Sequence record: MH359124
Source: Escherichia phage SF
DNA: 64,000 nucleotides
Reading direction: 5' to 3' (one strand)
Part shown: piece by piece, positions 6,274 to 56,147 of the stretch
How the letters are laid out: each line of letters begins with the position of its first letter
How positions within the stretch are numbered: position 1 is the first letter of the stretch
Made by a program: the position numbers and the translations under genes
The notes under the pieces: model-generated
Told to the model about the DNA's origin: nothing
The model's input: only the letters and a program-made list of their open reading frames with translations
Database searches by the model: none

Positions 6274-7786
6274 ATAAATTAATTGTTTTCATTACATAGT
6301 TAAATTTCTCATCAGCGTAACGTTGGATACGATCAATACCGTGTTTTAACAAGTAATTAAGATGAGTATACTTCTTTTTAGTATTTAATGATTTAGGTTT
6401 TACACCTGCGTCATCTATGAGATCCCAAACTGTAGCAACAGCTTTAGAACCATGCTTACGAAGCACGCGACCTACGGTTTGAAGTACGATAATTTTTGAT
6501 TTAACACCATGGGCGAAAATAACATGATGAAGATTCTTGACTGAAATACCAGTAGAGAATACTCCATATGATGCGACAATAATAATGCCTTTACCATTTT
6601 CTGCCATGACTTTAAGCGCGTTACGTGTTTCAGTATCAACTTCACCTGATACGTAATAAACTTTTTCGTATCCAAGCTCTTTAATAGCTTCAAATATTTC
6701 TTTACCGTGTGTAACGTGTTTAAACATTACAAAGGCGTTCTCGTCTTTCTTAGCCAATTTGACTGAAAGTTGAGCAATCCACTTTGTACGTCGTTTTAGT
6801 CCGGTAATAATTTTAACTTCTTCTTGGTATGTTTTACCTTTTAATTTAACAGTGAATTCGTCCGGATAACGAAGGAAAATACTATTAATCTTAAGCTCAG
6901 TTACCTGTCCGTCTTCCATTAATTTAGACGTGCTAACAGGACGGAAGATTTCGCCGAACATACCTACGTACTGCATTACATTGGCTTTTCCGTCTCTTAA
7001 TGAGCCAGATAAACCGAATTTAAACATGCAATTATTTAATCCTGAGATGATTGAAGAAATACTTTTGCCTGTTGCTAAGTGGCATTCATCATTCATCATC
7101 ATACCGAACTGAGAGAACCATTCTTTAGGCTGCTTAACCACTGTTTGCCATGTACCAACAATAATTGGAGCGTCGTTTTTAGATTTGTCTGCTTTATCAG
7201 CACCACCGCCAATTTTCTTAATCATTGAATGACTAAACAAGCGATAATCAACAAAATCATTAGCCATCTGGGTTGTCAATGCTGTTGTAGGGACGATAAT
7301 GAGAATTTTACCTTCATAGTTCTCTAGATAATATCGAGCTAAAAGTGCTTGGATTAGTGATTTACCTGCTGATGTCGGAAGGTTTAAAATTCGCCGACGA
7401 TTAACTAGTCCTTCATATACTGCATCTTTTTGATACCAATGTGGTTCGATTTTGGAGTTGCCTGAATAAATTTCTTGTTTAGAAAGCCATGCGTCAAAAT
7501 CTTCCCTGGTAAGGTCTTCAGTCTCAAAGATTTTAGGGTCAATCCATACAGAATAACTCATATTGTTACAGAACTTTTTTATTTGTCCTACAAGTCCATA
7601 TGGTAACAAACGATTGTAATCTAAAAGTCGAATTCTACCATCCCATTGCCCATAGCGATATTTTGGGTTAAATTTATACCCGTCAGCTTCAAAGCTAAAA
7701 AAGTCACGAAGTTCGTAAAACGTACTTTCGTCGCATTCAATGCGAACGTGACTAAAATCATAAAAATGTACTTTAATGTCAGTCAT
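6272..7786 (-). CDS. uvsW: UvsW ATP-dependent DNA/RNA-DNA helicase
   Basis: 504-aa ORF with helicase motifs (LNLPTSAGKS Walker A, DECH box, TVGRVLR motif VI); size matches T4 UvsW; late promoter upstream. Confidence 0.92.
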   Translation of the reverse strand: MTDIKVHFYDFSHVRIECDESTFYELRDFFSFEADGYKFNPKYRYGQWDGRIRLLDYNRLLPYGLVGQIKKFCNNMSYSVWIDPKIFETEDLTREDFDAWLSKQEIYSGNSKIEPHWYQKDAVYEGLVNRRRILNLPTSAGKSLIQALLARYYLENYEGKILIIVPTTALTTQMANDFVDYRLFSHSMIKKIGGGADKADKSKNDAPIIVGTWQTVVKQPKEWFSQFGMMMNDECHLATGKSISSIISGLNNCMFKFGLSGSLRDGKANVMQYVGMFGEIFRPVSTSKLMEDGQVTELKINSIFLRYPDEFTVKLKGKTYQEEVKIITGLKRRTKWIAQLSVKLAKKDENAFVMFKHVTHGKEIFEAIKELGYEKVYYVSGEVDTETRNALKVMAENGKGIIIVASYGVFSTGISVKNLHHVIFAHGVKSKIIVLQTVGRVLRKHGSKAVATVWDLIDDAGVKPKSLNTKKKYTHLNYLLKHGIDRIQRYADEKFNYVMKTINL

Positions 7787-7815
7787 GTCAAATTACCATG
7801 TAATAAATATAGTTA

Positions 7816-7823
7816 TATTTATA
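7816..7823 (-). promoter_or_regulatory. late promoter TATAAATA for uvsW
   Basis: Plus-strand TATTTATA is TATAAATA on minus, 30 nt upstream of the uvsW ATG. Confidence 0.65.
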
Positions 7824-7836
7824 ATGAGGAAATACT

Positions 7837-8505
7837 ATGATCGATAAAGACTATATTGAAGAGTTACGTGCTCTTTCTGATAAAAAGGAAGCCAAAGCTA
7901 AACTGTTTGAATATGCGGAACAATTTGGCATTAGTGTTAAGAAAACAAAATCATTCGATAATATTGTTATTGATATCGAAGAAGCTCTTAAAGCACTGGC
8001 TGATGAACCATTACCTGAAACTGATGGATTATCTATCACCGATTTAATTACTGCCGCAGATGATGTGGACGGTGTTAATTTCACCAACGAAGAAGTTAAA
8101 GAAGAAGCTATTCTGTTGTTTGATTCTCCAACAGAACAAGTTGAAGTATTAGAAGTTGTCGAACAAGAAAAAGAATTCGACCATGATAAATTCGAAGAAG
8201 CAATTACTCAGGTTGTTGAATCTGAAAAAGAGCCTGAGACAGAGGTAAATAAAGAAGTAAAATTTGTTCTGCCTGAAAATTTTAGTCCTACACTCATTAA
8301 ATTAGGCAAAGCTCCAGGATATGTTACTGTTCCTTGGTGGATTTATCAATGGATAGCCGAAACCCCAGATTGGAAATCTCGCCCAACTAGTTTTGTGCAT
8401 GCTTCTGCTCACCAAACATTATTTAGCTTAATTTATTATATTAATCGCGATGGATCAGTTCTAATTCGTGAATCTCGTAATTCTTCTTTCGTAACATTAA
8501 AATAA
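7837..8505 (+). CDS. inh: Inh inhibitor of prohead protease gp21
   Basis: 222-aa ORF with acidic central region, position immediately upstream of hoc as in T4. Confidence 0.75.
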   Translation: MIDKDYIEELRALSDKKEAKAKLFEYAEQFGISVKKTKSFDNIVIDIEEALKALADEPLPETDGLSITDLITAADDVDGVNFTNEEVKEEAILLFDSPTEQVEVLEVVEQEKEFDHDKFEEAITQVVESEKEPETEVNKEVKFVLPENFSPTLIKLGKAPGYVTVPWWIYQWIAETPDWKSRPTSFVHASAHQTLFSLIYYINRDGSVLIRESRNSSFVTLK

Positions 8506-10308: not shown

Positions 10309-11316
10309 ATGTTTAAGAAATACAGCAGTCTTGAAAACCACTACAACTCTAAGTTTATTGAAAAACTCTACACTAATGGTTTGACTACTGGTGTTTGGGT
10401 AGCACGTGAGAAAATCCATGGGACCAACTTCTCGTTAATAATTGAACGTGACAACGTCACATGCGCTAAGCGCACAGGCCCTATTCTTCCAGCAGAAGAT
10501 TTTTACGGCTATGAAATCGTACTCAAGAAGTATGATAAAGCTATTAAAGGCGTTCAAGAAGTCATGGAAAGTATTTCAACTTCAGTGCCGGTGTCATATC
10601 AAGTCTTTGGTGAATTCGCTGGTGGTGGAATTCAGAAAGGTGTTGACTACGGTGAAAAAGATTTCTATGTATTCGATATCATCATAAACACGGAAAGTGA
10701 TGATACTTATTATATGAGTGATTACGAAATGCAAGATTTCTGTAATACGTTTGGTTTTAAAATGGCACCAATGCTTGGTCGTGGAACATTTGATTCTCTT
10801 ATCATGATTCCAAACGACCTTGATTCTGTCTTAGCCGCTTATAATGCTACTGCGTCAGAAGACCTTGTAGAAGCAAATAATTGTGTATTTGATGCTAATG
10901 TTATTGGTGATAATACGGCAGAAGGTTATGTTCTGAAGCCTTGTTTCCCTAAATGGCTGCCAAACGGTACTCGTGTAGCTATTAAGTGCAAGAACTCTAA
11001 ATTCAGTGAAAAGAAAAAGTCCGATAAGCCTATTAAAACTCAGGTTCCATTAACCGAAATTGACAAAAACCTGCTTGATGTTCTAGCTTGTTATGTTACA
11101 TTAAATCGTGTTAATAATGTGATTTCTAAGATTGGAACTGTAACGCCAAAAGATTTTGGCAAAGTGATGGGATTGACTGTTCAAGATATTCTGGAAGAAA
11201 CTTCTCGTGAAGGTATTGTATTAACATCATCTGATAATCCGAATCTTGTTAAGAAAGAATTAGTCCGAATGGTGCAAGATGTTCTGCGTCCTGCATGGAT
11301 TGAATTAGTATCATAA
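10309..11316 (+). CDS. rnlB: RNA ligase 2 (Rnl2)
   Basis: 335-aa ORF; N-terminus [21 protein letters not shown] with nucleotidyltransferase motif I (EKIHGTNF); matches T4 Rnl2 (334 aa). Confidence 0.92.
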
Positions 11317-11319
11317 CGA

Positions 11320-11348
11320 AAAAAGGGACCGTAAGGTCCCTTTGTTTT
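11320..11348. terminator. bidirectional terminator between convergent rnlB and gp24
   Basis: aaaaaGGGACC-gtaa-GGTCCCtttgtttt: GC stem flanked by A-run and T-run. Confidence 0.65.
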
Positions 11349-12630
11349 ATTCATCAACGATGATTTTTGGCAATTTAACACCGAGTAAAACAGACAAGTC
11401 TGAACGTCCTGCCATTTTATCCATGTCCCCGCCATCAATTATTCTCGCTTCTTTTTCATCTTTTGCTACTGTGTAAGGATTTGCTGATAAAGCATATCTA
11501 ACCAATAATCCGATAGATGGTTGCAAGCTTTCTGGATCAACTACAACTTTAAATGCACCAACATGTTCTGGGTCATCTAAATCTACTCCTTCAGTGTATG
11601 GAGCATAAAAGATGGACCCTACAATTTCTTTTTCGCCGATATTTTCTACAACACCCACAATAACATAATCTAACGGACTGTTGGTGTCGCAGTAAAGAGG
11701 TAATCCATTTGCCAAGAATCCATAAGCATTTTGTGAAAGATACTTGTCATCTTCTGGCTTATGTTTTAACCAACCAGAAGCAGCAAGAATAGCAGCTGCA
11801 CGAGCTGAGGCTACACAAAACGTTGCAGTATAAGTTGTCTCTTTTTGAATGTGTGATACCATTTCACATACCATTCGATATAATGAACGACCTGCTTCTG
11901 GAGCGGATGCATAGCTCAAGTCAATAAATCCGGTGTCAGTAATTCCAGTAACTTTATAGCGTTTCGATACAGTAATTAAAGACTGAAGAATATCTTTATT
12001 AATTTCATCAGCCATTTCAGTGGCAAGCAAATCTTCTAAGAAGTTAGGGGCATCAAATCCATTCGCTTCCAAATCTTGCGCTAATTCAACCGTGAGACCA
12101 GTTTTAAGTTTACGAGATTTGACTGAAGTTTGCCATTTATTAATCTGGAATCTTGCATCAGAAATTTCGCTACCAGAGCTTTCAAATTTGCTTGTTACCG
12201 CTGCATCTGAAAATAACCGTACCTTTAAATGAACGACTGCAATCTGAAGAGCTAATTCTAGATCACTTTCTTGAATATCCGCAAATGGTGTATCTTCTAA
12301 CACTTTATAGACAATATTATTATATTTGAAAAAATCGCCTTTATTTAGTGTGACTTTTGATTCTTCTGTGAGCTCAGTAATTTTTTCTCGGTCTACATAT
12401 CCAACTTCGCCAGCATAAGTAGCACCAGTTTTAAATGTGAATTCGTTATCTGGGTTAAGATATTTGATACCATAAAAAGCAGCAACAGGTTGATTAGTTC
12501 TTTGTGTTGCTACAATGTCAGAATATATTAATTTAGTCGTAGCGCGAGTCAAAGCAACGAGATTTGGGCGACCAATTGAGTTGCTAGTAGACGTTGTAGA
12601 TTCACGCAATAATTTTTGGATTTTACTCAT
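11347..12630 (-). CDS. 24: gp24 capsid vertex protein
   Basis: 427-aa ORF (T4 gp24 is 427 aa), gp23-like fold region, RBS and late promoter upstream. Confidence 0.92.
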   Translation of the reverse strand: MSKIQKLLRESTTSTSNSIGRPNLVALTRATTKLIYSDIVATQRTNQPVAAFYGIKYLNPDNEFTFKTGATYAGEVGYVDREKITELTEESKVTLNKGDFFKYNNIVYKVLEDTPFADIQESDLELALQIAVVHLKVRLFSDAAVTSKFESSGSEISDARFQINKWQTSVKSRKLKTGLTVELAQDLEANGFDAPNFLEDLLATEMADEINKDILQSLITVSKRYKVTGITDTGFIDLSYASAPEAGRSLYRMVCEMVSHIQKETTYTATFCVASARAAAILAASGWLKHKPEDDKYLSQNAYGFLANGLPLYCDTNSPLDYVIVGVVENIGEKEIVGSIFYAPYTEGVDLDDPEHVGAFKVVVDPESLQPSIGLLVRYALSANPYTVAKDEKEARIIDGGDMDKMAGRSDLSVLLGVKLPKIIVDE

Positions 12631-44384: not shown

Positions 44385-45070
<686 letters not shown>

Positions 45071-45118: not shown

Positions 45119-45146
45119 ATCAAATAAACAACCTCAAGGAAATAAA

Positions 45147-45458
45147 ATGAAAACCTATCAAGAGTTTATCGCTGAAGCTACTAAAGCCGATAAAAATTTT
45201 ATTATTAACACCACCGGTCCGTTAGATGATGAATACGCTAATGCTATTATTAAGTCAATTTCTAATCAAGGCGTTGAAGTAACAAATTTCGAATATAAGA
45301 AAAATGATACTTATATGATAATTAGTATCAAAAAAGGTTCAAAAGCCAAAATTAAATCCGCATTTGGTGTTATGCGAGTTGACCAAATCGATAACCACGA
45401 TTTTTCACAAACAGGGGCCAAACGCCAAAATACCATTTCTTCTAAAGGCATAAAATAA
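45147..45458 (+). CDS. internal protein (ipI locus) with capsid-targeting leader
   Basis: N-terminus MKTYQEFIAEA, the T4 internal-protein capsid targeting sequence; early promoter upstream; position adjacent to 57B. Confidence 0.8.
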   Translation: MKTYQEFIAEATKADKNFIINTTGPLDDEYANAIIKSISNQGVEVTNFEYKKNDTYMIISIKKGSKAKIKSAFGVMRVDQIDNHDFSQTGAKRQNTISSKGIK

Positions 45459-47288: not shown

Positions 47289-47362
47289 GGCCCTGTAGCT
47301 CAACGGTTAGCAGCAGTCCCCTCATAAGGGAAAGGTTACCAGTTCGAATCTGGTCTGGGTCA
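47289..47362 (+). tRNA. tRNA with anticodon CAT (Met/Ile2 type)
   Basis: Manual cloverleaf: acceptor GGCCCTG/CTGGGTC (one mismatch), D-arm GCTC-AACGGTTAG-CAGC, anticodon loop CTCATAA, T-arm ACCAG-TTCGAAT-CTGGT; 6 nt before the next tRNA. Stems are imperfect. Confidence 0.6.
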
Positions 47363-47368
47363 TATATT

Positions 47369-47445
<77 letters not shown>

Positions 47446-47463: not shown

Positions 47464-47808
47464 ATGAAAGGCAACATTTATCTGGTAGTTCATGATTTAA
47501 CGTTTTATTTTAACGAATATGATACAGTTATTTCTCATCGATTGATTAATTCGCTGTATCAGCATGCCGATTACATCTATGTTCAAAATGAATTTGGTCA
47601 TTGGAAGTTCATTAAAAATCGTTCTGGGTTAACTAGTTTTGAATACTTTGACCGTAAAGACCTTTTAAACGAAATCCCATTGCAACATCGGTTCCAGAAA
47701 CGTGAATCATTATATTATTGCCGCCATATACCAAACGCCGAATGTGTTAATGAAGCGATTAATCTATGGCGTCGGCGTCGAGAGCAAATTGATGATATGC
47801 CAAAATAA
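47464..47808 (+). CDS. hypothetical protein
   Basis: ATG 47464 with strong RBS GAGGAA; 114 aa; the track ORF start at 47416 lies inside tRNA-Arg. Confidence 0.6.
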   Translation: MKGNIYLVVHDLTFYFNEYDTVISHRLINSLYQHADYIYVQNEFGHWKFIKNRSGLTSFEYFDRKDLLNEIPLQHRFQKRESLYYCRHIPNAECVNEAINLWRRRREQIDDMPK

Positions 47809-47959
47809 GAAGCCGGGTCGCTACCGGTAAGTCGTCGGACTGATGTTCCCTGCGTAAGGACTGGTCTTAAATAAATCTTTATGATTTGTTAATATCCCCT
47901 TACATCACAGCAGAAACGGCGCACAGAATTATCGATTCGAGGAAATATCTTTGCCGTAA

Positions 47960-48150
47960 GCCGAGTAGCGTTTTTGACGGAACGTTCGGATATGGTCGAG
48001 ATATGGCCTTTTAAAAATATTGAGTAGCGTCAACTGCTTAATAACCGGGTTCGAATCCCGGCGTTTCGTACAAACACTTGCCTTAGCAGGTGGAACCCCG
48101 ACAAGGTTGCCGCAAGGCATAGCCCCTTCCGAAAGGTTGGGGCTTTTTGG
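47960..48150 (+). ncRNA. candidate small stable RNA with tRNA-like T-arm and terminator (possibly analogous to T4 rnaC/rnaD)
   Basis: 385-bp ORF-free stretch next to the tRNAs; tRNA-like T-arm CCGGG-TTCGAAT-CCCGG (48045..48061) and pairing 7-nt acceptor-like strands; GC hairpin plus T-run at 48121..48148. Boundaries approximate. Confidence 0.35.
48121..48148 (+). terminator. rho-independent terminator (AGCCCC...GGGGCT plus TTTTT)
   Basis: agccccttccgaaaggttggggcttttt at the end of the ORF-free RNA region. Confidence 0.65.
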
Positions 48151-48193
48151 CATAATAATAAATAGATAAGTTAATTAACTTAGGAAAAGCAAA

Positions 48194-48658
48194 ATGAAAT
48201 CATACGCCGAATTTTTGACTGAACAATCTAGTTCAGATGTAAAAGCCGCTGCGATTGCAGCAATTCAAGCAGGTAAATATTCTTACAAAGACGCCTCTGA
48301 TGAAGAACGTTTCCGTTTTATTAGAGATTTTAAAGCCGAAGGTTTTACTAATGCTAATACTGTTAGCCGAGTTTTTAAAAGCCTAGCTGCATCAGGTGAA
48401 TTGTTCCAGAAAGCTACAGGTAAAGCACCTGCGCCAAAAGCGGACCCTAAAGCCGCTCAAGAAAAAAATATCGCCAAAGGAATTATTTCTAAGTATGAAG
48501 CAATTCTTAAAGAGCTTTTAGTAATCAAAACAGAAGGCCAGAAACTGGCACGAGCACATAGCTTCAAAGATAATCCTCACGCTCATAGCCTTGAGTATGT
48601 TGAAGATATCCAAAAACTTATTAAAGACCGTATCTGGTCTGCTAAACAAATTAAATAA
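48194..48658 (+). CDS. internal-protein-like (CTS variant MKSYAEFLTE), 154 aa
   Basis: CTS-like N-terminus; flanked by near-identical terminator hairpins. Confidence 0.7.
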   Translation: MKSYAEFLTEQSSSDVKAAAIAAIQAGKYSYKDASDEERFRFIRDFKAEGFTNANTVSRVFKSLAASGELFQKATGKAPAPKADPKAAQEKNIAKGIISKYEAILKELLVIKTEGQKLARAHSFKDNPHAHSLEYVEDIQKLIKDRIWSAKQIK

Positions 48659-48664
48659 TAGAAT

Positions 48665-48691
48665 GCCCCTTCCTTACGGTTGGGGCTTTTT
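48665..48691 (+). terminator. rho-independent terminator after IP gene 48194, near-copy of 48121..48148
   Basis: gccccttccttacggttggggcttttt. Confidence 0.65.
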
Positions 48692-48829
48692 GGTATCTAG
48701 GCCTTTCCGGGAATCTCTAGGCATCATTTAGTTTATACCCTTTATAATAATATATTATCCTACCTTTTAATTGCCTCTCTCTGCCCTAGAATTCCCCGGA
48801 ACTTTTTAAAAATTTTTTTTCACAAAACT

Positions 48830-48859
48830 GTTTACATCCCTGTTCTTCCGTGGTACTAT
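48830..48859 (+). promoter_or_regulatory. early promoter GTTTACA...TACTAT
   Basis: ctGTTTACAtccctgttcttccgtggTACTATac upstream of ORF 48902. Confidence 0.55.
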
Positions 48860-48901
48860 ACAACTATCAACTACCGATACAGAAAAAACTTGGAGAATGA
48901 A

Positions 48902-49165
48902 ATGGATAATTACGGCGAACTGTTCAACTTCTTTATGAAATGTGTTCCAGAAGATTTCGGACGTACGGTGAATGATATTAAAGTTATCGGTCCTGAACAC
49001 CCTGTGTATGAAACCTATGCAGTAATGGGTAATGAAGACGGACAGTGGTATACAATTAAAGTTGTGATTAATATGTTCTCGGCCGAAGGCTACGCCAAAT
49101 CGTCTACCAAAGTTTACCATGATAACGATTTTGATGCGGAAGATTATTTCAATAATATGAAATAA
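48902..49165 (+). CDS. hypothetical protein
   Basis: ATG 48902 with RBS GGAG; early promoter at about 48830..48859. Confidence 0.55.
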   Translation: MDNYGELFNFFMKCVPEDFGRTVNDIKVIGPEHPVYETYAVMGNEDGQWYTIKVVINMFSAEGYAKSSTKVYHDNDFDAEDYFNNMK

Positions 49166-49223
49166 ATGTGTACATGGGCTCATGATTAAGATATTATGAG
49201 CCCTATTAATGAGAAAGAATGTT

Positions 49224-49529
49224 ATGAGTCTTTATACTGAACTGAATAAAAAATCTGAAGAATCTGCTGAAACTATTTTTAAAAACGTGCAAAAGCGTAT
49301 TTTAGAAAAGATGTATAACACTGCAGCTAAAGGTGAAAAATCTTGCCGGTTTCCGATGAGGTGTTCTTCTGATTTATGCGCAAATACTATTGAATGGCTG
49401 GAAAGTGAAGGTCTTACGGTAGAGAAAAACCCGGCGACTTCTATTGACAGTGAATCATATATTAGTATTTCTTGGGATAAACCACGTATTAATGAAGGAC
49501 ACTACAAGTTGTTGAGTTGGAAAAATTAA
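49224..49529 (+). CDS. hypothetical protein
   Basis: ATG 49224 with RBS GAGAAAG. Confidence 0.55.
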   Translation: MSLYTELNKKSEESAETIFKNVQKRILEKMYNTAAKGEKSCRFPMRCSSDLCANTIEWLESEGLTVEKNPATSIDSESYISISWDKPRINEGHYKLLSWKN

Positions 49530-49537
49530 AATAATGA

Positions 49538-49566
49538 TGTACAAGCACCAAAGATGGTGATACTAT
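49538..49566 (+). promoter_or_regulatory. early promoter for ORF 49596 (leader duplicated at 12690..12731)
   Basis: tgatactatagacttatcaactacagaggag shared with the 12732 upstream region; -35 is TGTACA here. Confidence 0.55.
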
Positions 49567-49595
49567 AGACTTATCAACTACAGAGGAGAAACAAA

Positions 49596-49823
49596 ATGGC
49601 TACAGTTAGTATTGATGTCGTTGATTATGAATACACTGAAGAAGTTATTCGCAACCGTCACCCTGAAGTTCGTATCGATTCAGTCCAAGATTCCAAGTTC
49701 TGGACAACTGAGCTTAATCTGAGTGGTCCTTATGAAGCTGTTAAGAAGTTCATGGTTGAAGAATACTGTGAAGGCATGCACCCGGAAGACGCCGAGTTTT
49801 ATGTCAATTTGATTAAAAAATAA
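49596..49823 (+). CDS. hypothetical acidic protein (75 aa)
   Basis: RBS GAGGAG; promoter and leader nearly identical to the one upstream of 12732. Confidence 0.6.
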   Translation: MATVSIDVVDYEYTEEVIRNRHPEVRIDSVQDSKFWTTELNLSGPYEAVKKFMVEEYCEGMHPEDAEFYVNLIKK

Positions 49824-49893
49824 TTTACAAACTCTTGAGAGCAGAGTATAATGCTCTCATTGGATAATAAACCACCAATTGAAAGGTAATAAT

Positions 49894-50487
49894 ATGAACA
49901 CACTGAAGAAACTTGTTGAATTCATCCGCACTAAACTGGGTACTGCTATGGCTAAAAATCTAACTGTCGAAGAACAGTATAACGCAGCTGCAGATAAGTT
50001 GATTACCCAAATCAAAGAACTAAAAACGGCTTCTGTTAAATCTATTAATGAAGAAAAACGTATTCGCGAACTTGTTATTGAAAAGAATAAGCAAGCCGCT
50101 TCTAAGGAACGTGAAATTCGTAAGCTCCTGGCTGAAGGACAAGATGTTACCATGCATGCTAAGCTTGGTCTTCTGTATCGTCGAACTGCCGAACAACTTA
50201 ATACAAAAGCTGATGGGTATGCCGCTATGCGAATTGAAATTGCTCGTAAGGTGGTTGAACTTGACGACGCTCGTCAGAATCTGGCAATCAAACTCGAATA
50301 CATTCGTGAAACTCGAGCAGCTAATGCCCTTGGTATCTCTACGGCCGATGATGTAATTGAAATCGCTGCACTGACTAAGGTTGATATCGAAGACACTCTG
50401 ACTCGTGTTGAAACGTTCAATGGCACTCCAACCGGTGTCGAAACCACTTCTGCTGATGTACAAGAATATATTAACTCTTTGAAATAA
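49894..50487 (+). CDS. coiled-coil protein (possibly PspA/IM30-like; weak inference)
   Basis: ATG 49894 with RBS AAAGG; 198 aa, predominantly helical and charged heptad-like; hairpin terminator follows. Confidence 0.6.
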
Positions 50488-50495
50488 AATAATAC

Positions 50496-50517
50496 GGAGG
50501 ACTCCGGTCCTCCTTTT
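50496..50517 (+). terminator. rho-independent terminator after ORF 49894 (GGAGGAC-tccg-GTCCTCC plus TTTT)
   Basis: Perfect 7-bp stem and T-run. Confidence 0.65.
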
Positions 50518-50536
50518 GGATAATAAAGGAGTTAAC

Positions 50537-51133
50537 ATGCGAAACCAAAATAATGATATTGACTCGATGTTCGAAGAGTTCCGAAATAAGGTAAATCCAC
50601 CTACGTCTTTAGTTGATTCATTACGATATGTTGCAACTGGACGTAAATGGTACTGGTCGTCTTCTTATGAGACAACTGAATATGCAAATAACCGAAAATC
50701 TTTATTAGCCCCAGGTATTATGATTCATGATATCGGAGCTATTGCTAAACTAGTTGCAGACCATGATATTAGATTCACCGATTTCGTTGCTCCTACGTGG
50801 TCTGTTTGTTGTTTAAACACTGAATGGGAATATATCAGCGAACGCTCTGAAGATTATTATGGTTTTAGAGACAAGCTTTTAAGGTCTAACATGTTTTATA
50901 TTGATACAGAAGTTCTGGTCAATAATAAAAAATACTATTTCACTTTAATAGTCGATTCTGAAACTATGTATGAAGGCAAGCCTTTGCTTAAAAGAGTTGA
51001 TGCTTTAAGTGCTATTGATGCGCTTTATGAAACCATGGTTGTTAGTCCTAATTTCACTAACAATTTAATCCTTGAGCAATTTATTATGGAATGTAGAGAA
51101 TATGTCAAAGCCAACCCTATACATGCCAAGTAA
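50537..51133 (+). CDS. hypothetical protein (199 aa)
   Basis: ATG 50537 with RBS AAGGAG; C-terminal region contains the FIMECRE junction motif. Confidence 0.65.
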   Translation: MRNQNNDIDSMFEEFRNKVNPPTSLVDSLRYVATGRKWYWSSSYETTEYANNRKSLLAPGIMIHDIGAIAKLVADHDIRFTDFVAPTWSVCCLNTEWEYISERSEDYYGFRDKLLRSNMFYIDTEVLVNNKKYYFTLIVDSETMYEGKPLLKRVDALSAIDALYETMVVSPNFTNNLILEQFIMECREYVKANPIHAK

Positions 51134-51497
51134 GCCCTGGGCGTATGAATACAAGCGTAAATTAATCCCAAATGAAGTACTATTTGGCCCTATTTTAGCT
51201 TTAGCATTTTTAATCTTTATGATTATAGGAGCTGTTTTAGATTCTAGTGAAGTTATATCGTCTGATGCAGTGTTTTTACTTATTATAGTCGGGTCGTTTA
51301 TTGTACCATTTTTATTAATGCCTATTAACTGGGTAGGATATTGGCACCAAGGCCGTCATCACAGAGCCCGATTAAGAGAATGGAAAGTTCAGTGCGCAAA
51401 AGCCCAAGCTCAGTATGATGAAGCTGTTAAAAAGTACGAATATGAAGAAGCTATGGAATTCGTTAAGGAAATAAGATGCAAAAGCCTCAACTCTTAA
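51102..51497 (+). CDS. small membrane protein (2 TM), ECR-family paralog
   Basis: Start at 51102 (alternative 51123); TM segments ILALAFLIFMIIGAVL and VFLLIIVGSFIVPFLL; C-terminus EFVKEIRCK. Confidence 0.6.
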   Translation: MSKPTLYMPSKPWAYEYKRKLIPNEVLFGPILALAFLIFMIIGAVLDSSEVISSDAVFLLIIVGSFIVPFLLMPINWVGYWHQGRHHRARLREWKVQCAKAQAQYDEAVKKYEYEEAMEFVKEIRCKSLNS

Positions 51498-51835
51498 CCG
51501 TATGGCCTTCTCTTGGTGAGAACATTCTAATTTTTATTATGAGTATTGGCGTGGGATTTGCCTTTGGATTAGTTGGATTTCTTATTGACGGCGTTGTGTT
51601 AGGATTTATAGGGAACACTGGTGGATTCACAGACCAATGGCAGGACTTACGGTATACCCAAGCCTTTGCATCCATCGCATCATTTTGTACTGTAGTCTAT
51701 TTTTACTATGATTTTATAAACCATAACAAGAAAAATAAAAAGGTTTACGCTTCTCAAATGATTAGTTATAATGAACTCCTAGCTAGACGTGAAAATGAAA
51801 CAATAGAAAACTTTATTAAGGAATGTAGAAAATGA
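51476..51835 (+). CDS. small membrane protein (2 TM), ECR-family paralog
   Basis: TM segments; C-terminus ENFIKECRK; coupled to the downstream gene. Confidence 0.65.
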   Translation: MQKPQLLTVWPSLGENILIFIMSIGVGFAFGLVGFLIDGVVLGFIGNTGGFTDQWQDLRYTQAFASIASFCTVVYFYYDFINHNKKNKKVYASQMISYNELLARRENETIENFIKECRK

Positions 51836-52137
51836 GTAAGATTATTGAAATTAAAGTACCAGAGTTTAATGATGCCAAATCCGCTTCAGATGCAATTTAT
51901 AAACTTCTGAATCAAGCTGAACGTATCGAAGAAGAAGCAACAAAGATCGCAGACCAATATGCCGTATCATTTTCTGTAGGTGATTATGGTAGCGGTCGTA
52001 CTTATTATCCTAAGGGTGAAATCGTATCCCAGTGGATGAAAAATGAAATTGAAAATAATGGTGGCGATGTTAAGCGTGAAGGTAATGGTTACGTTATTAC
52101 TGAAGGTGCTTGGGTTTCGTCTTCTGCGTTGTGCTAA
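51832..52137 (+). CDS. small protein, member 1 of a tandem paralog triplet (C-terminus GAWVSSSALC)
   Basis: 101 aa; shares C-terminal G-W-[VI]-[SA]-S-S-x-x-C and upstream spacer GCTAAGGAA with the next two ORFs. Confidence 0.65.
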   Translation: MSKIIEIKVPEFNDAKSASDAIYKLLNQAERIEEEATKIADQYAVSFSVGDYGSGRTYYPKGEIVSQWMKNEIENNGGDVKREGNGYVITEGAWVSSSALC

Positions 52138-52146
52138 GGAACCACT

Positions 52147-52419
52147 ATGTCTAAAGAACAAACCGAACTGGCTGAAGCCGTAGCAAAAATCTATGCAGCT
52201 ATTGAGGCTGCCAAAGAAATTGCTGATAAACAAAACACAACATTCGACTTGTATCCAGCTTATGGTATGGGTGGAACATATCATTCACCCGGACAGCTTA
52301 AAGCCGATCTTGAACGTTGTACAAAAAACGGCTATGCTGAATGGGCTGACGTTTACCAATACGACTACAACCTGAGCCTCGAAACTGGTGGTTGGATCGC
52401 ATCTTCTCACACTTGCTAA
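52147..52419 (+). CDS. small protein, member 2 of the tandem paralog triplet (C-terminus GGWIASSHTC)
   Basis: 90 aa; conserved C-terminus and RBS context. Confidence 0.65.
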   Translation: MSKEQTELAEAVAKIYAAIEAAKEIADKQNTTFDLYPAYGMGGTYHSPGQLKADLERCTKNGYAEWADVYQYDYNLSLETGGWIASSHTC

Positions 52420-52428
52420 GGAAACCAT

Positions 52429-52626
52429 ATGTCTCGTGAATTAGATTGTGCTGTACGTACTGCAGTAGCTGCCCTGGAAAACCTGTTCCAAATTGCAACA
52501 GAAGAACGCGAAGAAGTTACATTATGGATTGAAGATAACGCAGGTCTGAATCTCCAGGACGCGATCTCATTATCCCACAATAGTATCACTGTTCAAGGCT
52601 GGGTATCGTCTAGTTATTCTTGCTAA
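52429..52626 (+). CDS. small protein, member 3 of the tandem paralog triplet (C-terminus QGWVSSSYSC)
   Basis: 65 aa; conserved C-terminus and RBS context. Confidence 0.65.
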   Translation: MSRELDCAVRTAVAALENLFQIATEEREEVTLWIEDNAGLNLQDAISLSHNSITVQGWVSSSYSC

Positions 52627-52630
52627 AACA

Positions 52631-52670
52631 GTTTACAACAAGATAGGGCTATGTTATAGTAGTCCTATCA
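52631..52670 (+). promoter_or_regulatory. early promoter with stem-loop (PeSL)
   Basis: GTTTACAacaagaTAGGGCTAtgtTATAGTAGTCCTAtc. Confidence 0.65.
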
Positions 52671-52688
52671 AATTAAATGGAGTCCACA

Positions 52689-52928
52689 ATGATTTATTAC
52701 GAAAGTATTGGAACCGAAGTGGTTGCTAAAACCATTACTCGTGAAAAGTTTGCAAAGATATTCGATATGCGTTATAAAAAATCTGAACACAAAGGCATTC
52801 GATTCGAAGATGCGCACTGTACAATTTGCCCTTATAATGAAGACATAAATGGTACAATCGTTCCATTGGTAGAGGCTTCACATGATGACCTCTGGGATGA
52901 ATATAATATCGCATGTCGCGAAATTTAA
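52689..52928 (+). CDS. hypothetical protein
   Basis: ATG 52689 with RBS GGAG; PeSL-type promoter upstream. Confidence 0.55.
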   Translation: MIYYESIGTEVVAKTITREKFAKIFDMRYKKSEHKGIRFEDAHCTICPYNEDINGTIVPLVEASHDDLWDEYNIACREI

Positions 52929-52953
52929 GTAATCTAAATTCGAGGAAATTATT

Positions 52954-53910
52954 ATGATGTTAGTTATTGGTTCTCGTGCACTTCACTATCATGGACTTAT
53001 TGATTCTAATGCTATCAAAAATAGTGACTGGGACTTTATTGCAGACCAAGGTTCTTGGAATGCATTCAAAAATCAAATGATGGGTGTATATGTTCATCAA
53101 GATAACCCTGATGTCCAAGTTTTCAAATGCTTCCATAATGGACGCGAAACTCATTTTGAAGCATATATTGTTCCGGCAATCACTAATGTCCGTGAATTAG
53201 TCGGTGAACTCACTCCTGAAGATTTCACATCTTCTTACGACCTTTTAAAATACGCCAAGAAAAATTTGACCAAAGACCGTTTGAACGGGTTTTACTGGGC
53301 AACTCCTGAGATATGTCTTGCAATTAAGATGTCTCATCGTTTCAAGAAAAATAATCCATTCTTTTTAAAGACTATGAACCATATTCAGTATCTTCGTGGT
53401 AAAGGTGTTACACTGAACGACGAACTTACTGAAATTATGCTGAAACGCCAGAAAGAAACCTTGAACTATGCTCACCCAGTTCTTGACACTTCTAAAAGTG
53501 CGTTCTTTAAAGATGACATCTATACATATGACCATGATACTATTCATGAAGCCATTGCACTAACAGACCGCCCGGCTTATACATTTTACATGAAAGATGG
53601 TTCTGAAGTCATGACCTCACGCGAGAAGTTTGAATCATTACCAGAAATGGTAAAATTGGCTGGTGTATACGAAGAATCATGTGTACTAGCATTAGAACGT
53701 TCTCAGATTCCTAACGACTTTAAAATTAACCCTGAAGCCAGTTTTATGATGGCATTGGAAAAAGTCTGTACAAGCATCACCTCTGGTTGGTTCCGTGAGT
53801 ATGCCTGGGAAAACTATAGCAAAGTAGTAAGTATGTACCAAAGCTTAGGACATGATGATTACGTCAAACGTTTCAAACAAAATTTCCATATGGTAAAACC
53901 TTTCAAATAA
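52954..53910 (+). CDS. 318-aa protein with putative Pol-beta-type nucleotidyltransferase motif
   Basis: RBS GAGGAA; N-terminus MMLVIGSRALHYHGLIDSNAIKNSDWDFIA fits h-G-S...D-x-D, with a possible third carboxylate in HFEAYIV. Motif-level inference only. Confidence 0.7.
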   Translation: MMLVIGSRALHYHGLIDSNAIKNSDWDFIADQGSWNAFKNQMMGVYVHQDNPDVQVFKCFHNGRETHFEAYIVPAITNVRELVGELTPEDFTSSYDLLKYAKKNLTKDRLNGFYWATPEICLAIKMSHRFKKNNPFFLKTMNHIQYLRGKGVTLNDELTEIMLKRQKETLNYAHPVLDTSKSAFFKDDIYTYDHDTIHEAIALTDRPAYTFYMKDGSEVMTSREKFESLPEMVKLAGVYEESCVLALERSQIPNDFKINPEASFMMALEKVCTSITSGWFREYAWENYSKVVSMYQSLGHDDYVKRFKQNFHMVKPFK

Positions 53911-53922
53911 CTTCACAAAACT

Positions 53923-53962
53923 GTTTACATAATTATAGGGACTATGTTATAGTAGTCCTATT
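53923..53962 (+). promoter_or_regulatory. early promoter with stem-loop (PeSL)
   Basis: GTTTACAtaattaTAGGGACTAtgtTATAGTAGTCCTAtt. Confidence 0.65.
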
Positions 53963-53981
53963 AAAACATGAGGAGAATATT

Positions 53982-54287
53982 ATGAAATTAACAGAAACCA
54001 ATCGAATCGGTCTTTTAACAATATTTGCATCACCTTTTTACGCAGCTCTTTCTGTTGCAGTATTACAAAAGGCCTACGATATGGATGGAGTTACTGGTTT
54101 TGTATTCTTATCGCCGTTTTTGCTATTCGTTGGAGCATTGTTATTATACGCCACGACTAGTTTCGACCATAATGTCTGGGTCAATTATAAATGTAAATTG
54201 TCTGAAGAAGAACACGCAGAAGCTCGTAAAAAAGCTATTGAATCTACCAATCTAGAAAATTTCATTAAAGAATGTCGAGGAAAATAA
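53982..54287 (+). CDS. small membrane protein (2 TM), ECR-family paralog
   Basis: RBS GAGGAG; TM segments; C-terminus ENFIKECRGK. Confidence 0.65.
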   Translation: MKLTETNRIGLLTIFASPFYAALSVAVLQKAYDMDGVTGFVFLSPFLLFVGALLLYATTSFDHNVWVNYKCKLSEEEHAEARKKAIESTNLENFIKECRGK

Positions 54288-54288
54288 T

Positions 54289-54975
54289 ATGAATAGTTCT
54301 AAAGTGTTTAATAGTCAAGCTCGTGCAGTAGGTGGTTTTGCTCATGCGATTAAAAACGAGCAGATTAAAAACGAGCCTATGTTCTTTAACTGCGATTTGA
54401 ATTTTGCTTTTGATAATGGCGGTCCAATTACTCGTAGCTTTATCCAAAATCTTCCTGACGATTGGAAAGACTCGGATGTAGTATTTGATTCACGAGTCCA
54501 CATGCTGATGCCTGGTTGGTATCCTGCTATTCCTGGATATCACCATGATGATGTTCCTCGCCCTGATATTCCAGTTGGTCAACACTTTATTACTGCAGGA
54601 CAACCTGATTATGACAATCCTCGCTATTTGTCTGAACATATTCTTGGTCTTGTTAACGCTGATGTGTGTCCTACTCATTTTGCAACAGGAGCTGCAGAGT
54701 TCAGTCAGATTCCTGATGGCGAACTTATCTATCGCCAGTGGCACAAAGAAGTCCTCGAAAAAATTGAAAAAGGCGAACTAGAGAAATGGGAAGCTCCAGA
54801 TCGTACTCTTCTTCAGTTTGATTGGCAAACATGGCACACTGGTTCTCGTGCAATTAGTAATGGATGGCGTTGGTTCGGACGTGTATCTCGTAATACAGGC
54901 CGAGTTAAAAAGATTACCAATGAAATTCGTGTCAATGCTCAAGTTTATCTGGAATTCCCTATGGAAGGCTGGTAA
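54289..54975 (+). CDS. 228-aa His/Asp/Trp-rich protein (possible metal-binding enzyme)
   Basis: RBS GAGGAA; motifs PGYHHDD and CPTHF; no confident family assignment. Confidence 0.65.
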   Translation: MNSSKVFNSQARAVGGFAHAIKNEQIKNEPMFFNCDLNFAFDNGGPITRSFIQNLPDDWKDSDVVFDSRVHMLMPGWYPAIPGYHHDDVPRPDIPVGQHFITAGQPDYDNPRYLSEHILGLVNADVCPTHFATGAAEFSQIPDGELIYRQWHKEVLEKIEKGELEKWEAPDRTLLQFDWQTWHTGSRAISNGWRWFGRVSRNTGRVKKITNEIRVNAQVYLEFPMEGW

Positions 54976-55466
54976 TGATACATAAAATTCACTGGACAAA
55001 CATGGACGATGGCGACGAAGGTATTTCATATTATTCTATAGATTGGACAGGATGTCCATCCTACTTAGTGAAACATATTTGCCAAGAATTTAAAATCGAC
55101 CAGCCAGCAGGTATTATCGTGAACAGATACATTAATGGATATCAACCTATCGATGAAGTAATACGAACAACTCAAGCTGAGCTTGAAAGGTTTTTCAATA
55201 AGTGTCAATGGATAACAGGATGGATTATATTTGTACCGTCTATATGGTTTTTCAGTACTAAGGTGAGTTCTTTCGGTTTTGTTGATATTATTGCTATCTT
55301 ATTAGCATCTAGTATCATAAGTGTTGTTGGTGGCATCATTGGCGGCGGTACCGCCGCCATCATTATTAATCTTATTAAAAGTAGTTTACAAGAACATAAA
55401 GACAAGATAAAGGCCAAGAATAATGAAGTTGAACGTTTTATTACCGAATGCAGGAATTTGAGATGA
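54975..55466 (+). CDS. membrane protein with N-terminal soluble domain and 2 TM, ECR-family paralog
   Basis: C-terminus ERFITECRNLR; TM segments WIIFVPSIWFF and IIAILLASSIISVVGGIIGG; ATGA coupling. Confidence 0.65.
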   Translation: MIHKIHWTNMDDGDEGISYYSIDWTGCPSYLVKHICQEFKIDQPAGIIVNRYINGYQPIDEVIRTTQAELERFFNKCQWITGWIIFVPSIWFFSTKVSSFGFVDIIAILLASSIISVVGGIIGGGTAAIIINLIKSSLQEHKDKIKAKNNEVERFITECRNLR

Positions 55467-55699
55467 GTATAGCAATTTACATTAAATCAGAATCATGTGA
55501 TTCTTATCTGTACACATACGATAAAGATGTGTCAGAAGAAAAAATCAAAGACGACCTTAATATGGACCTTGATTTGTTCCGTCCTATTTCAGATTACAAA
55601 CTAGCATTCTCCGATAGCGAGCGTCCTGATAAAGAAACTCGCATTGAAGAATTTATGTCCGAATTAATGGCCAAATCATGGGACCGAGATGATGAGTAA
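55463..55699 (+). CDS. hypothetical acidic protein
   Basis: ATG 55463 with RBS AGGAA, overlapping the upstream stop; alternative start 55448. Confidence 0.5.
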   Translation: MSIAIYIKSESCDSYLYTYDKDVSEEKIKDDLNMDLDLFRPISDYKLAFSDSERPDKETRIEEFMSELMAKSWDRDDE

Positions 55700-56147
55700 G
55701 AAAAATAAAGTGAAAGAACTATCAGCCGGTATTATTTTCATGACAAAAGATAAAGAGTTATTCATGGGCCGTGTGACTGGTTCTCGTCCTAAAGGTTCTT
55801 TAACTCATCGGTGGGATATTCCTAAAGGCCGTGTCGAACCTGGCGAATCTCCTATTGAAGCCGCTATTCGTGAATGCGAAGAAGAAACTGGGTTTACACA
55901 ATATGACCCTGCCTTCCTGAAAGACCTAGGTGAACATCATTACTCAGACAATAAGAATATTCATCTGTTCCTATATACCATCCCTGTAGAGCACGAGCAA
56001 TTCAGAAACAGTGTTTGTAATTCCTATCATACATTCCCAGACGGACGACAGATTCCTGAATTTGATGCATTCGCTTTAATTAAACCTTCTCAATGGGAAT
56101 ATGTAATGGGCAAATCATTATATAAGGTGCTCACTACCCTCCTATAA
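55689..56147 (+). CDS. nudE: NudE Nudix hydrolase
   Basis: Nudix box GRVEPGESPIEAAIRECEEETGF; 152 aa; directly upstream of e, as T4 nudE (e.1). Confidence 0.88.
   Translation: MMSKKNKVKELSAGIIFMTKDKELFMGRVTGSRPKGSLTHRWDIPKGRVEPGESPIEAAIRECEEETGFTQYDPAFLKDLGEHHYSDNKNIHLFLYTIPVEHEQFRNSVCNSYHTFPDGRQIPEFDAFALIKPSQWEYVMGKSLYKVLTTLL

Follow-up and report, generated by a model that had tools for sequence, protein, structure and literature searches.

The tRNA-nudE interval of Escherichia phage SF: a probable Mosigvirus form of a T-even hyperplastic region, carrying a widespread and apparently undescribed pairing of tail-protein genes with a toxin-like nucleotidyltransferase

Introduction

The genomes of T4-type phages contain hyperplastic regions, in which clusters of small, non-essential early open reading frames (ORFs) lie between blocks of core genes, and the differences between close relatives map to PeSL cassettes (PMC2839356; PMC4122927). 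A PeSL consists of a sigma-70-type early promoter with a stem-loop located between, over or beside the promoter boxes, and the T4/PST consensus is TTTACW-N17-TAYWAT (Arbiol et al. 2010, PMC2839356; Comeau et al. 2014, PMC4122927). Herein we analyzed the interval between the tRNA genes and nudE (47464-55700) in a 64,000-nucleotide (nt) stretch of Escherichia phage SF (sequence record MH359124; the whole stretch is hereafter called the window), where an initial annotation had described an expanded accessory island of small early genes. Two of its components are the main subject of this work: a triplet of small genes whose products share a conserved C-terminal tail (hereafter tail genes and tail proteins), and a gene for a 318-amino-acid (aa) nucleotidyltransferase (NTase) that lies downstream of them.

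The nearest described locus is that of phage RB69 (GenBank AY303349 / NC_004928, 66.2-74.8 kb), sequenced in 2003, which has the same genes in the same order as the region in the window. The corresponding region of T4 reads nudE-e.2...e.8-rnaC-rnaD-tRNA-Arg (67.5-71.2 kb) and shares with the window its strand, its flanks and a series of collinear orthologues.

For individual genes of the region, other systems serve as points of reference. In the MenA-MenT and AbiEi-AbiEii pairs, a small antitoxin gene lies upstream of the gene for an NTase toxin, and MenT3, a toxin structurally related to the 318-aa enzyme, reportedly acts on tRNA-Ser. GlnD, an enzyme with an NTase and an HD domain, uridylylates and de-uridylylates the small protein PII. 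The T4 internal proteins IPI, IPII and IPIII carry the capsid targeting sequence (CTS) MKTYQEFIAE, and a consensus of this sequence among T-even internal proteins is said to have been given by Mullaney and Black in 1996. IPI and IPIII have been described in the literature as injected anti-defence proteins.

Results

Identity and composition of the region

To place the region, 47464-55700 was compared by megablast with 50,697 phage records, of which 831 matched and 128 covered at least 80% of the region. The top matches were RB69-like coliphages, with 95-96% identity across 93-99% of the query (95.1% nucleotide identity over 94% of the region for RB69 itself), and the window was therefore assigned to a Mosigvirus phage. 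In RB69 the corresponding segment is ORF130c-ORF150c, for which the 2003 annotation already used the names e.2, e.3, e.4, e.5, e.6, e.8 and frd.3. From the end of tRNA-Arg (47445) to the start of nudE (55689) it measures 8,243 base pairs (bp) and by our count holds 18 protein ORFs, all on the plus strand and closely packed (Table 1). It is 2.2 times longer than the 3,682 bp found at the same position in T4, in agreement with the size difference initially proposed. T-even phages have a known hyperplastic early-gene region that separates the tRNA genes from nudE/e, and we consider it probable that the interval studied here is its Mosigvirus (RB69-type) form. It is a mosaic, in which repeated regulatory cassettes would shuffle modules and tail proteins and NTase would make up an embedded two-component system. 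Owing to its collinearity with RB69 and its fit to the published model of hyperplastic regions, the 8-kb island as such is already known and is not novel.

The initial annotation had seen no recognisable T4 counterparts, a statement that did not survive a tblastn search of every island ORF against the complete T4 genome: homologues in T4 exist for seven of the 18 ORFs (e.8, e.6, e.5, e.4, e.3, e.2 and frd.3; identities in Table 1) as well as for two stable RNA genes, and their order is largely conserved. The RNA genes, rnaD and rnaC (84% and 98.6% full-length identity to T4 by blastn), had been overlooked and fill the 385-bp "intergenic" stretch after the first ORF; an Rfam search of the region gave two tRNAs only, as Rfam contains no family for either rnaD or rnaC, and both RNAs were found by alignment to T4. 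The protein earlier described as a coiled-coil protein is the e.6 orthologue, also present in JD18 and Aeromonas phage 31, and with 1 Pro and long runs free of Pro and Gly a coiled coil in it is plausible. The remaining 11 ORFs gave no match anywhere in the T4 genome in this search, namely those of the ORF150c and ORF146c types, the 154-aa ORF, the triplet, and those of the ORF135c, ORF134c, ORF133c, ORF132c and ORF130c types.

The backbone of the region is collinear with T4 (rnaD, rnaC, e.8, e.6, e.5, e.4, e.3, e.2) and is broken by insertions at four or five points. Between tRNA-Arg and rnaD, which together with rnaC directly follows tRNA-Arg in T4, a 345-bp ORF of the RB69 ORF150c type intervenes; further along come a terminator-bracketed cassette with the 154-aa ORF, and ORF146c together with frd.3 in the place of e.7. 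Between e.3 and e.2 lies the most extensive insertion, a block of 3.1 kb composed of the three tail genes, ORF135c, the NTase gene, a membrane paralogue (ORF133c) and the gene for a 228-aa protein, and ORF130c is inserted before nudE. T4 lacks ORF150c, the 154-aa cassette, ORF146c, the tail array, ORF135c, the NTase, ORF133c, the 228-aa protein and ORF130c, and instead has e.7 and segB, while its frd.3 is located elsewhere, at 146.6 kb.

Regulatory elements and cassette borders

Defining a strong PeSL as a stem of at least 8 bp with at least three G-C pairs wrapped around the -10 box, we identified six in the whole 64-kb window (45084, 45459, 49169, 49824, 52632 and 53924). All of them fall within 45-54 kb, four in the island and two just upstream, and none comparable was found elsewhere in the 64 kb. 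The island genes, which share a single strand, thus have sigma-70-type early promoters with fused stem-loops ahead of them. A repeat search recovered one PeSL repeat family with four copies (45473, 45801, 52646 and 53939) and a pair of intrinsic terminators at 48122 and 48665, which are 88% identical and bracket the 154-aa ORF; a third terminator follows e.6. The promoter stem-loops and terminators noted initially are thus real features, as they match the published definition and consensus and as the repeats are confirmed.

Collinearity with RB69 (95-96%) is interrupted twice. The segment 48149-48641, which holds the 154-aa CTS-type cassette in the window, is swapped for ORF149c/148c in RB69, and the swap falls exactly between the twin terminators; in addition, RB69 carries between ORF146c and frd.3 an extra ORF145c segment that the window lacks. 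The repeated PeSLs and the twin terminators are located at cassette borders, where such repeated regulatory cassettes would be substrates for recombination that shuffles modules, as published for PeSLs. Compared with the published PeSL hyperplastic regions there is a difference in that one swap in the window is bounded by twin terminators and not by PeSLs. The term hyperplastic hotspot is nevertheless apt, given that the region is dense in PeSLs and that its content varies between genera (see below) as well as between close relatives (the 48149-48641 swap and the ORF145c insertion or deletion).

Two points tell against this picture of a distinctive early region. The promoter scan overall found 40 promoters where shuffled sequence led us to expect 32 ± 7, so that the PeSL subset alone is distinctive; and early expression of the island genes is something we infer from promoter consensus and from orthology with T4 early-region genes. 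The late-promoter consensus TATAAATA does not occur in the island. The sole late-promoter-like element there is AATAAATA at 48157-48164, which matches the T4 late consensus TATAAATA at seven of eight positions and precedes the start codon of the 154-aa ORF by 30 nt.

Long and short forms across genera

With loci anchored on nudE and measured from the last tRNA to nudE in individual phages, the length was 8,601 bp in RB69 (Mosigvirus), 8,697 bp in vB_EcoM_005 (Dhakavirus), 7,425 bp in VR7 (Gaprivervirus) and 7,329 bp in PG7 (Karamvirus), against 3,682 bp in T4 and 3,691 bp in T6 (both Tequatrovirus) and 3,680 bp in JD18 (Jiaodavirus). The flanks are the same in all genera compared (57A/57B/tRNAs on one side, nudE/e/denV on the other), and between them the length ranges from 3.7 to 8.7 kb and the gene sets differ, which contradicts the idea of one gene content throughout the Tevenvirinae that would have refuted the mosaic reading. 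The word "expanded" accordingly holds relative to Tequatrovirus and Jiaodavirus but not in general, since the 7.3-8.7 kb form exists in four genera and T4 has to be regarded as a short variant. The block composed of the triplet, ORF135c, the 318-aa and 228-aa genes, e.2 and ORF130c is shared by the window with Gaprivervirus and Dhakavirus at 54-85% amino-acid identity, and triplet-type, 318-aa and ORF130c genes are also present in Karamvirus. In VR7 (locus extract 10813-11463) and vB_EcoM_005 (10649-11299) an HNH/restriction-type endonuclease gene is located between the NTase and 228-aa genes, a mobile-element insertion of Gapriver- and Dhakavirus that the window does not have. The tRNA cluster itself is highly variable, with two genes (Met and Arg) and no segB in the window and RB69, eight with segB between them in T4 and T6, and about 20 in PG7.

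It is a serious possibility, if somewhat short of probable, that the long form is ancestral and that T4, T6 and JD18 arrived at the short form by deletion of the e.3-e.2 block (and ORF130c), in which case nothing has been expanded. The presence of the same block at the same position in Mosig-, Gapriver- and Dhakavirus, with its tail-NTase-ORF130c part also in Karamvirus, speaks for such a history, as does the published record of spontaneous multi-kb deletions of accessory regions in T4. Adjoining the putative deletion point, e.2 of T4 is decayed, with its C-terminal motif still readable. T6, however, combines an intact e.2 with the same short locus, which makes the decay T4-specific and weakens its use as a deletion scar; we therefore discarded it in that role. 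The PeSLs flank sub-blocks of the region, so insertion fits equally well. Gain in the lineage of the window and loss in that of T4 are equally likely, a point that also has to be set against our own reading of the locus. As for e.2 itself, the T4 gene (67472-67960) contains two in-frame stops, and the 161-bp gap before nudE still encodes NNFITECRKLK; in T6 (locus extract 7519-8007) and in the window (54975-55466) the gene is intact, encodes 162-163 aa and overlaps nudE or ORF130c.

The initial annotation further suggested a place where host-takeover or anti-defence genes accumulate, and in its strong form, that of a lineage-specific expansion gathering some 20 novel genes of this kind without T4 counterparts, we regard the idea as rather unlikely. 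What recommends it is the 11 ORFs without a T4 homologue, the more than doubled length relative to T4, the tandem paralogue arrays and cassette swaps that are typical of arms-race genes, and adjacent loci with published anti-defence roles (ipIII and the internal proteins, and the tRNA locus, which in T6 acts against Septu). Set against these are the seven ORFs and two RNA genes that are T4 orthologues, the occurrence of the long form in four genera, nearly identical in the 2003 RB69 genome, and the outcome of the family searches. When all island ORFs were searched against Pfam, PHROGs, NCBIfam and PADLOC, no functional assignment and no anti-defence or takeover family was obtained; FRD3, NUDIX, DUF7277 and DUF7275 alone passed the thresholds, and weak matches such as Peptidase_S78_2, spectrin and HisJ were dismissed as noise. 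A 57B homologue (44615-45070, plus strand, "RNA ligase" in RefSeq) lies 2.4 kb upstream of the island; its T4 counterpart is reported to be the anti-CBASS nuclease Acb1, which puts a known anti-defence gene near the island.

A conserved pairing of tail genes and a nucleotidyltransferase gene

The tandem triplet of paralogs reported initially is real: the three genes at 51832-52626 encode members of one tail family, and the array ends 328 nt upstream of the NTase gene on the same strand. Its linkage to the enzyme, which the initial annotation had overlooked, was first met in a tblastn comparison of the island proteins with four distant loci of the 318-aa protein, all four of which had matches to the triplet proteins just upstream. 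The proteins at these distant loci are 60-105 aa long, with an N-terminal helix, a central (G/A)xYGxGxxYYP and W-x-x-S-S-x-x-C at the extreme C-terminus; some of them have two motif copies, and they form arrays of two to five. For the family overall the length is 60-150 aa, the ending is W-x-[S/A/P]-S-S-x-x-C-COOH and the arrays hold one to five genes.

In order to quantify the linkage, 80 viral-contig loci were retrieved with an alignment of the enzyme, a tail ORF being defined by the ending W..[SN]S.{0,2}C and upstream by 2.5 kb on the same strand. Tail ORFs made up 188 of the 766 same-strand upstream ORFs and 2 of the 2,437 ORFs elsewhere (odds ratio 396, for 80 loci that are phylogenetically non-independent), and both exceptions lie further upstream on the same strand; at least one upstream tail ORF was found at 73 of the 80 NTase loci. 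After de-replication at 60% enzyme identity, which left 18 lineages, the tail motif was located upstream in all 18 and the homologous tail family in 17, while the next most common neighbour family was found in three. The 228-aa protein accompanies the NTase in two of the 18 lineages only and lies far from it in Gordonia phages, and it was not retained as a part of the module. The reciprocal comparison, starting from distant tail proteins in metagenome assemblies, placed a DUF7277/DUF7275 gene 4-200 nt downstream in three of three cases, in unrelated contexts. The module is hosted by T4-like, rV5-like and Otagovirus-like phages, by jumbo phages and by metagenomic contigs.

An exhaustive scan with a hidden Markov model gave at least 877 tail-protein clusters (50% identity, E <= 1e-3). 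Among 141 top representatives, the motif stands at the extreme C-terminus in 133, with W(-8) in 136, S(-5) in 137, S(-4) in 134 and Cys as the last residue in 135, this being the sole Cys in 86. Within the window the motif is confined to the triplet, and T4 has neither the motif nor the enzyme. The tail family matched no Pfam domain, and its members are called hypothetical in every source; a "seryl-tRNA synthetase" label given to one of them by JGI was rejected as spurious, probably reflecting similarity of the N-terminal helix. No name or paper was found for the module, and literature searches on the ORF names, the DUF numbers, phrog_899 or descriptive terms returned nothing about these genes. 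Judged from these sequences, tail-protein arrays and a toxin-like NTase form a widespread and apparently undescribed gene pair. The first tail gene is intact in the window (51832-52137, 101 aa). In the RB69 record (locus extract 7725-8031) one additional T, which may be a frameshift or an error of sequencing, divides it into ORF139c and ORF138c, and the RB69 copy also has Pro in place of Ser(-4) in the motif.

The enzyme itself contains two Pfam domains, an N-terminal Pol-beta-type NTase domain (DUF7277, residues 2-101) and a helical C-terminal domain (DUF7275, residues 120-305). Its homologues occur in 732 phage records, T4 not among them, including Straboviridae, Phapecoctavirus, Otagovirus and phages of Acinetobacter, Stenotrophomonas, Gordonia, Streptomyces and Vibrio, and form more than 2,200 clusters in a large protein collection. 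Across 52 aligned homologues, the most distant of them at 47% identity, G6, S7, D25, D27 and E69 are invariant; the initially reported NTase motif is therefore genuine and consists of hG[GS] (G6-S7), D25-x-D27 and E69, with a GS-to-DxD spacing of 17 residues that is longer than typical. The C-terminal domain is more conserved still, with H128, H174, H194-D195-H198, C243 and C272 among its conserved residues, and has an H...HD...D-like cluster. A confident AlphaFold2 (AF2) model (pLDDT 93, pTM 0.87) has the Pol-beta NTase fold, and its nearest solved structures are the toxins MenT1, MenT3 (TglT) and MenT4, with AbiEi also among the matches. On the strength of the invariant residues and the structural neighbours, we conclude that the 318-aa protein is by prediction a Pol-beta-type NTase, to which the DUF1814/AbiEii toxin enzymes are the closest relatives of solved structure. 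By sequence it falls outside DUF1814, as Pfam gives DUF7277 and DUF7275 only and PADLOC gives no match. Single-sequence and profile searches of the PDB with the NTase, the 228-aa protein, e.6, e.5 and the 154-aa protein returned no match.

Readings of the module

The strict order, strand and adjacency of tail genes and NTase gene across unrelated phages argue for functional coupling. The tail array and the MenT/AbiEii-fold enzyme may act together as a two-component system, in which the invariant C-terminal W-x-S-S-S-x-x-Cys tail would most likely be either what the enzyme acts on or the means by which it is controlled; a flexible tail with invariant hydroxyls and with a thiol and a carboxylate at its end suggests a recognition or modification site. 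We tentatively propose, as a possibility that still falls short of an expectation, that triplet and NTase are the two halves of an undescribed, widespread phage system in which the enzyme, with its conserved and metal-site-like C-terminal domain, would act covalently on the tail and the diversified arrays would supply the effectors of phage-host conflict. One option would be nucleotidylylation of Ser or Cys in the tail as a switch, comparable to the action of GlnD on PII. Another would be that the enzyme activates Ser for elimination and a thioether ring then closes onto the terminal Cys, in a manner similar to lanthionine/AviCys chemistry. The likeness to GlnD-PII lies in the succession of an NTase domain and a helical domain that bears an H...HD...D-like cluster, and in the tie to small proteins with invariant hydroxyls; it is offered as an analogy, and the putative target here is a Ser or Cys in a C-terminal tail whereas that in PII is a Tyr in a loop. 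Arrays of one to five diverged paralogues with a tandem-duplication signature at their junctions fit diversifying or dosage selection, a documented adaptive route in T-even phages.

Several considerations count against such coupling. Owing to the shared phylogeny of the 80 loci, the Fisher p-value makes the evidence look stronger than it is; conserved gene neighbourhood is the only basis from which coupling is drawn; and in the window a PeSL and ORF135c lie between the tail genes and the NTase gene, which may therefore belong to separate transcription units.

The main rival to tail modification is an arrangement of the toxin-antitoxin kind, in which the enzyme would be a toxin directed at host tRNA or another host target and the small proteins would neutralise or time it. 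The closest solved structures, with MenT1, MenT3 and MenT4 as toxins and AbiEi appearing alongside, point in this direction, and so do the strict linkage and the placement of small genes upstream of the NTase gene, in the order of MenA-MenT and AbiEi-AbiEii. Nevertheless we consider it unlikely: antitoxins do not usually come as up to five divergent paralogues per enzyme, Pfam shows neither a DNA-binding nor an AbiEi/MenA-like domain in the tail proteins, the enzyme falls outside DUF1814 by sequence, and an invariant Ser-Ser...Cys at the very C-terminus would better suit a site of modification or recognition. The module also differs from MenT and AbiEii systems in being phage-encoded and in its partner, one to five proteins with a W-x-S-S-S-x-x-C tail that are unlike MenA or AbiEi. 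That two independent accessory genes are simply co-inherited is very improbable, for in spite of the PeSL and ORF135c that separate them in the window, the pair is the only conserved neighbourhood across the 18 NTase lineages and keeps its order and strand in T4-like phages, Phapecoctavirus, Otagovirus, jumbo phages and metagenomic contigs with different replication genes.

Other genes of the region

The initial annotation had overlooked the capsid-targeting-type start of the 154-aa ORF, MKSYAEFLTE|Q, which includes an L-x-E gp21-type cleavage site; the product contains 13.6% Lys. The pattern MK[ST][YF]x[ED]F[IL]xE is found in six ORFs of the window, the 154-aa ORF and those at 45147, 45520, 56667, 57512 and 58086 (all on the plus strand); the latter five are located in the flanks of the island, and for four of them the RB69 counterpart is annotated in RefSeq as an internal head or virion protein. 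In its 5' coding sequence the 154-aa ORF repeats the 5' ends of the CTS-type genes at 45143 and 45516, one of which is annotated as ipI and the other, in RefSeq, as an internal head protein. The cassette occurs in about half of the Mosigviruses and in approximately 400 Tequatroviruses, and neither in T4 nor in RB69. Like IPI, IPII and IPIII of T4, the product has a CTS-type start, is rich in Lys and sits at a cassette-swap position; the rest of the protein has no relationship to known internal proteins. The analogy with IPI and IPIII makes it a candidate for injection, and we consider that it is probably packaged and injected as an internal protein. Two facts temper this assignment, which draws on ten N-terminal residues: their small number, and the annotation of all 510 database homologues as hypothetical. 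Among the island genes it is the candidate for which the anti-defence idea becomes most concrete, and in that case it would not be a purely "early" product. In total six candidate internal proteins are encoded within 13 kb, several of them preceded by PeSLs.

The 228-aa protein had been described as rich in His and Asp, which applies weakly to its overall composition (3.9% H and 7.0% D, a mild enrichment) and well to an invariant HHDD cluster. It is highly conserved, with 68-92% identity among its 120 best clusters and 1,288 clusters at E <= 0.001, and its homologues are spread over 471 phage records, among them phages of Aeromonas, Mycobacterium and Gordonia. AF2 gave a confident model (pLDDT 90), and 49 of the 50 best Foldseek matches in the PDB are Fe(II)/2-oxoglutarate (2OG) oxygenases, mostly PhyH-like, or a DUF4867 structure, at TM-scores of 0.26-0.42 and E about 1e-3. 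The invariant residues H85, H86, D87, D88, H183, R194 and R198 have a spacing that fits the PhyH-like pattern HxD...H...R, and one UniRef label on the family reads "phytanoyl-CoA dioxygenase family". Neither the query nor 50 family members matched a 2OG-oxygenase or PhyH family in Pfam. With a confident model and fitting residues on the one hand, and low TM-scores and no profile match on the other, we regard the protein as likely Fe(II)/2OG dioxygenase-like, its membership being unproven; it resembles PhyH-like dioxygenases such as proline hydroxylase H11, HygX and GriE in residue spacing and Foldseek matches, at low TM-scores. In view of the putative dioxygenase and the NTase, we also considered a link to the arabinosyl-5-hydroxycytosine DNA modification of RB69, which was rejected since the published pathway uses RB69 gp3, 28, 45-55 and 159, encoded elsewhere in the genome, and no island gene.

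The four two-transmembrane (TM) paralogues of the initial annotation are borne out, with a caveat for e.3: e.4, ORF133c and e.2 have two hydrophobic segments each, e.3 has one broad segment and a weaker one, and three of the four are orthologues of T4 e.2, e.3 and e.4. Their C-termini are related, reading ENFIKECRK (e.3), ENFIKECRGK (ORF133c) and ERFITECRNLR (e.2), with MEFVKEIRCK as a variant in e.4. The underlying F-[IV]-x-E-C-R motif is also located near the C-terminus of the soluble e.5 protein, in both the window and T4, and in the T4 e.2 remnant; it could be an interaction tag or a recombination junction. In PG7 (Karamvirus), the gene just upstream of the NTase gene ends in ENFIRICRK.

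Table 1 Features of the tRNA-nudE region and its boundaries, with positions in the window
Feature	Position	Strand	Basis or identity
tRNA-Met and tRNA-Arg, left boundary	47289-47362, 47369-47445	+	ARAGORN, Rfam
114-aa ORF, RB69ORF150c homologue, phrog_3355 (unknown function), no T4 homologue	47464..47808	+	
rnaD (T4 "species 2" stable RNA) homologue	47805..47924	+	alignment, blastn
rnaC (T4 "species 1" stable RNA) homologue, tRNA-like T-arm	47932..48070	+	alignment, blastn
Intrinsic terminator after rnaC, twin copy 1	48122..48153	+	repeat search
154-aa Lys-rich ORF, capsid-targeting-type N-terminus	48194..48658	+	77% identical to Dhakavirus gene
Intrinsic terminator, twin copy 2	48665..48696	+	repeat search
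Early-type promoter TTTACA-17-TACTAT with TG extension, upstream of e.8	48831..48859	+	promoter scan
e.8 orthologue	48902..49165	+	85% to T4 (tblastn)
PeSL TGTACA-17-TATTAT, 11-bp stem over -10 box	49169..49208	+	
106-aa ORF, RB69ORF146c homologue, at T4 e.7 position, no detectable T4 similarity	49209..49529	+	
frd.3 homologue	49596..49823	+	Pfam Phage_FRD3; 59% to T4 frd.3 (tblastn)
PeSL TTTACA-17-TATAAT, 8-bp stem around -10 box	49824..49865	+	
e.6 orthologue	49894..50487	+	88% to T4 (tblastn)
Intrinsic terminator after e.6	50496..50513	+	
e.5 orthologue, soluble, FIxECR motif in C-terminal region	50537..51133	+	47% to T4 (tblastn)
e.4 orthologue, two-TM membrane protein; start uncertain (51072, 51102 or 51123)	51102..51497	+	54% to T4 (tblastn)
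e.3 orthologue, membrane protein ending ENFIKECRK	51476..51835	+	35% to T4 (tblastn)
Three tandem W-x-S-S-S-x-x-C-tail genes	51832-52137, 52147-52419, 52429-52626	+	
PeSL TTTACA-17-TATAGT, 11-bp stem, four-copy repeat family	52632..52673	+	
79-83-aa ORF, RB69ORF135c homologue	52689..52928	+	
318-aa nucleotidyltransferase, DUF7277 and DUF7275 (RB69 ORF134c type)	52954..53910	+	Pfam
PeSL TTTACA-18-TATAGT, 8-bp stem, same repeat family as the PeSL at 52632	53924..53965	+	
101-aa two-TM membrane protein (RB69ORF133c) ending ENFIKECRGK, e.2/e.3 paralogue	53982..54287	+	
228-aa protein (RB69ORF132c), probably Fe(II)/2-oxoglutarate dioxygenase-like fold	54289..54975	+	
e.2 orthologue, 163 aa, membrane protein ending ERFITECRNLR	54975..55466	+	25% to T4 (tblastn)
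78-83-aa acidic ORF (RB69ORF130c), beside nudE in Gapriver-, Dhaka- and Karamvirus, not in T4	55463..55699	+	
nudE (Nudix hydrolase), right boundary	55689..56147	+	Pfam NUDIX; 63% to T4 NudE
F-[IV]-x-E-C-R motif sites	51080-51101, 51812-51833, 54260-54280, 55435-55455		

Discussion

The island itself is of little import, as it fits the published T4-type hyperplastic regions that are shuffled via promoter and terminator cassettes. Two corrections that follow from its analysis are useful for the family: T4 represents a short variant of the locus and not the norm, and the reference annotations hold decayed or split genes (e.2 in T4, ORF139c/138c in RB69). The CTS-type cassette with the 154-aa ORF offers a concrete candidate for a new injected anti-defence protein. 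What gives the region its value is the module embedded in it, in which small proteins of a very large family are strictly linked to a toxin-like enzyme across unrelated phages. This module might point to protein modification by a new chemistry or to phage effectors of a new class, and it is tractable in RB69 on E. coli.

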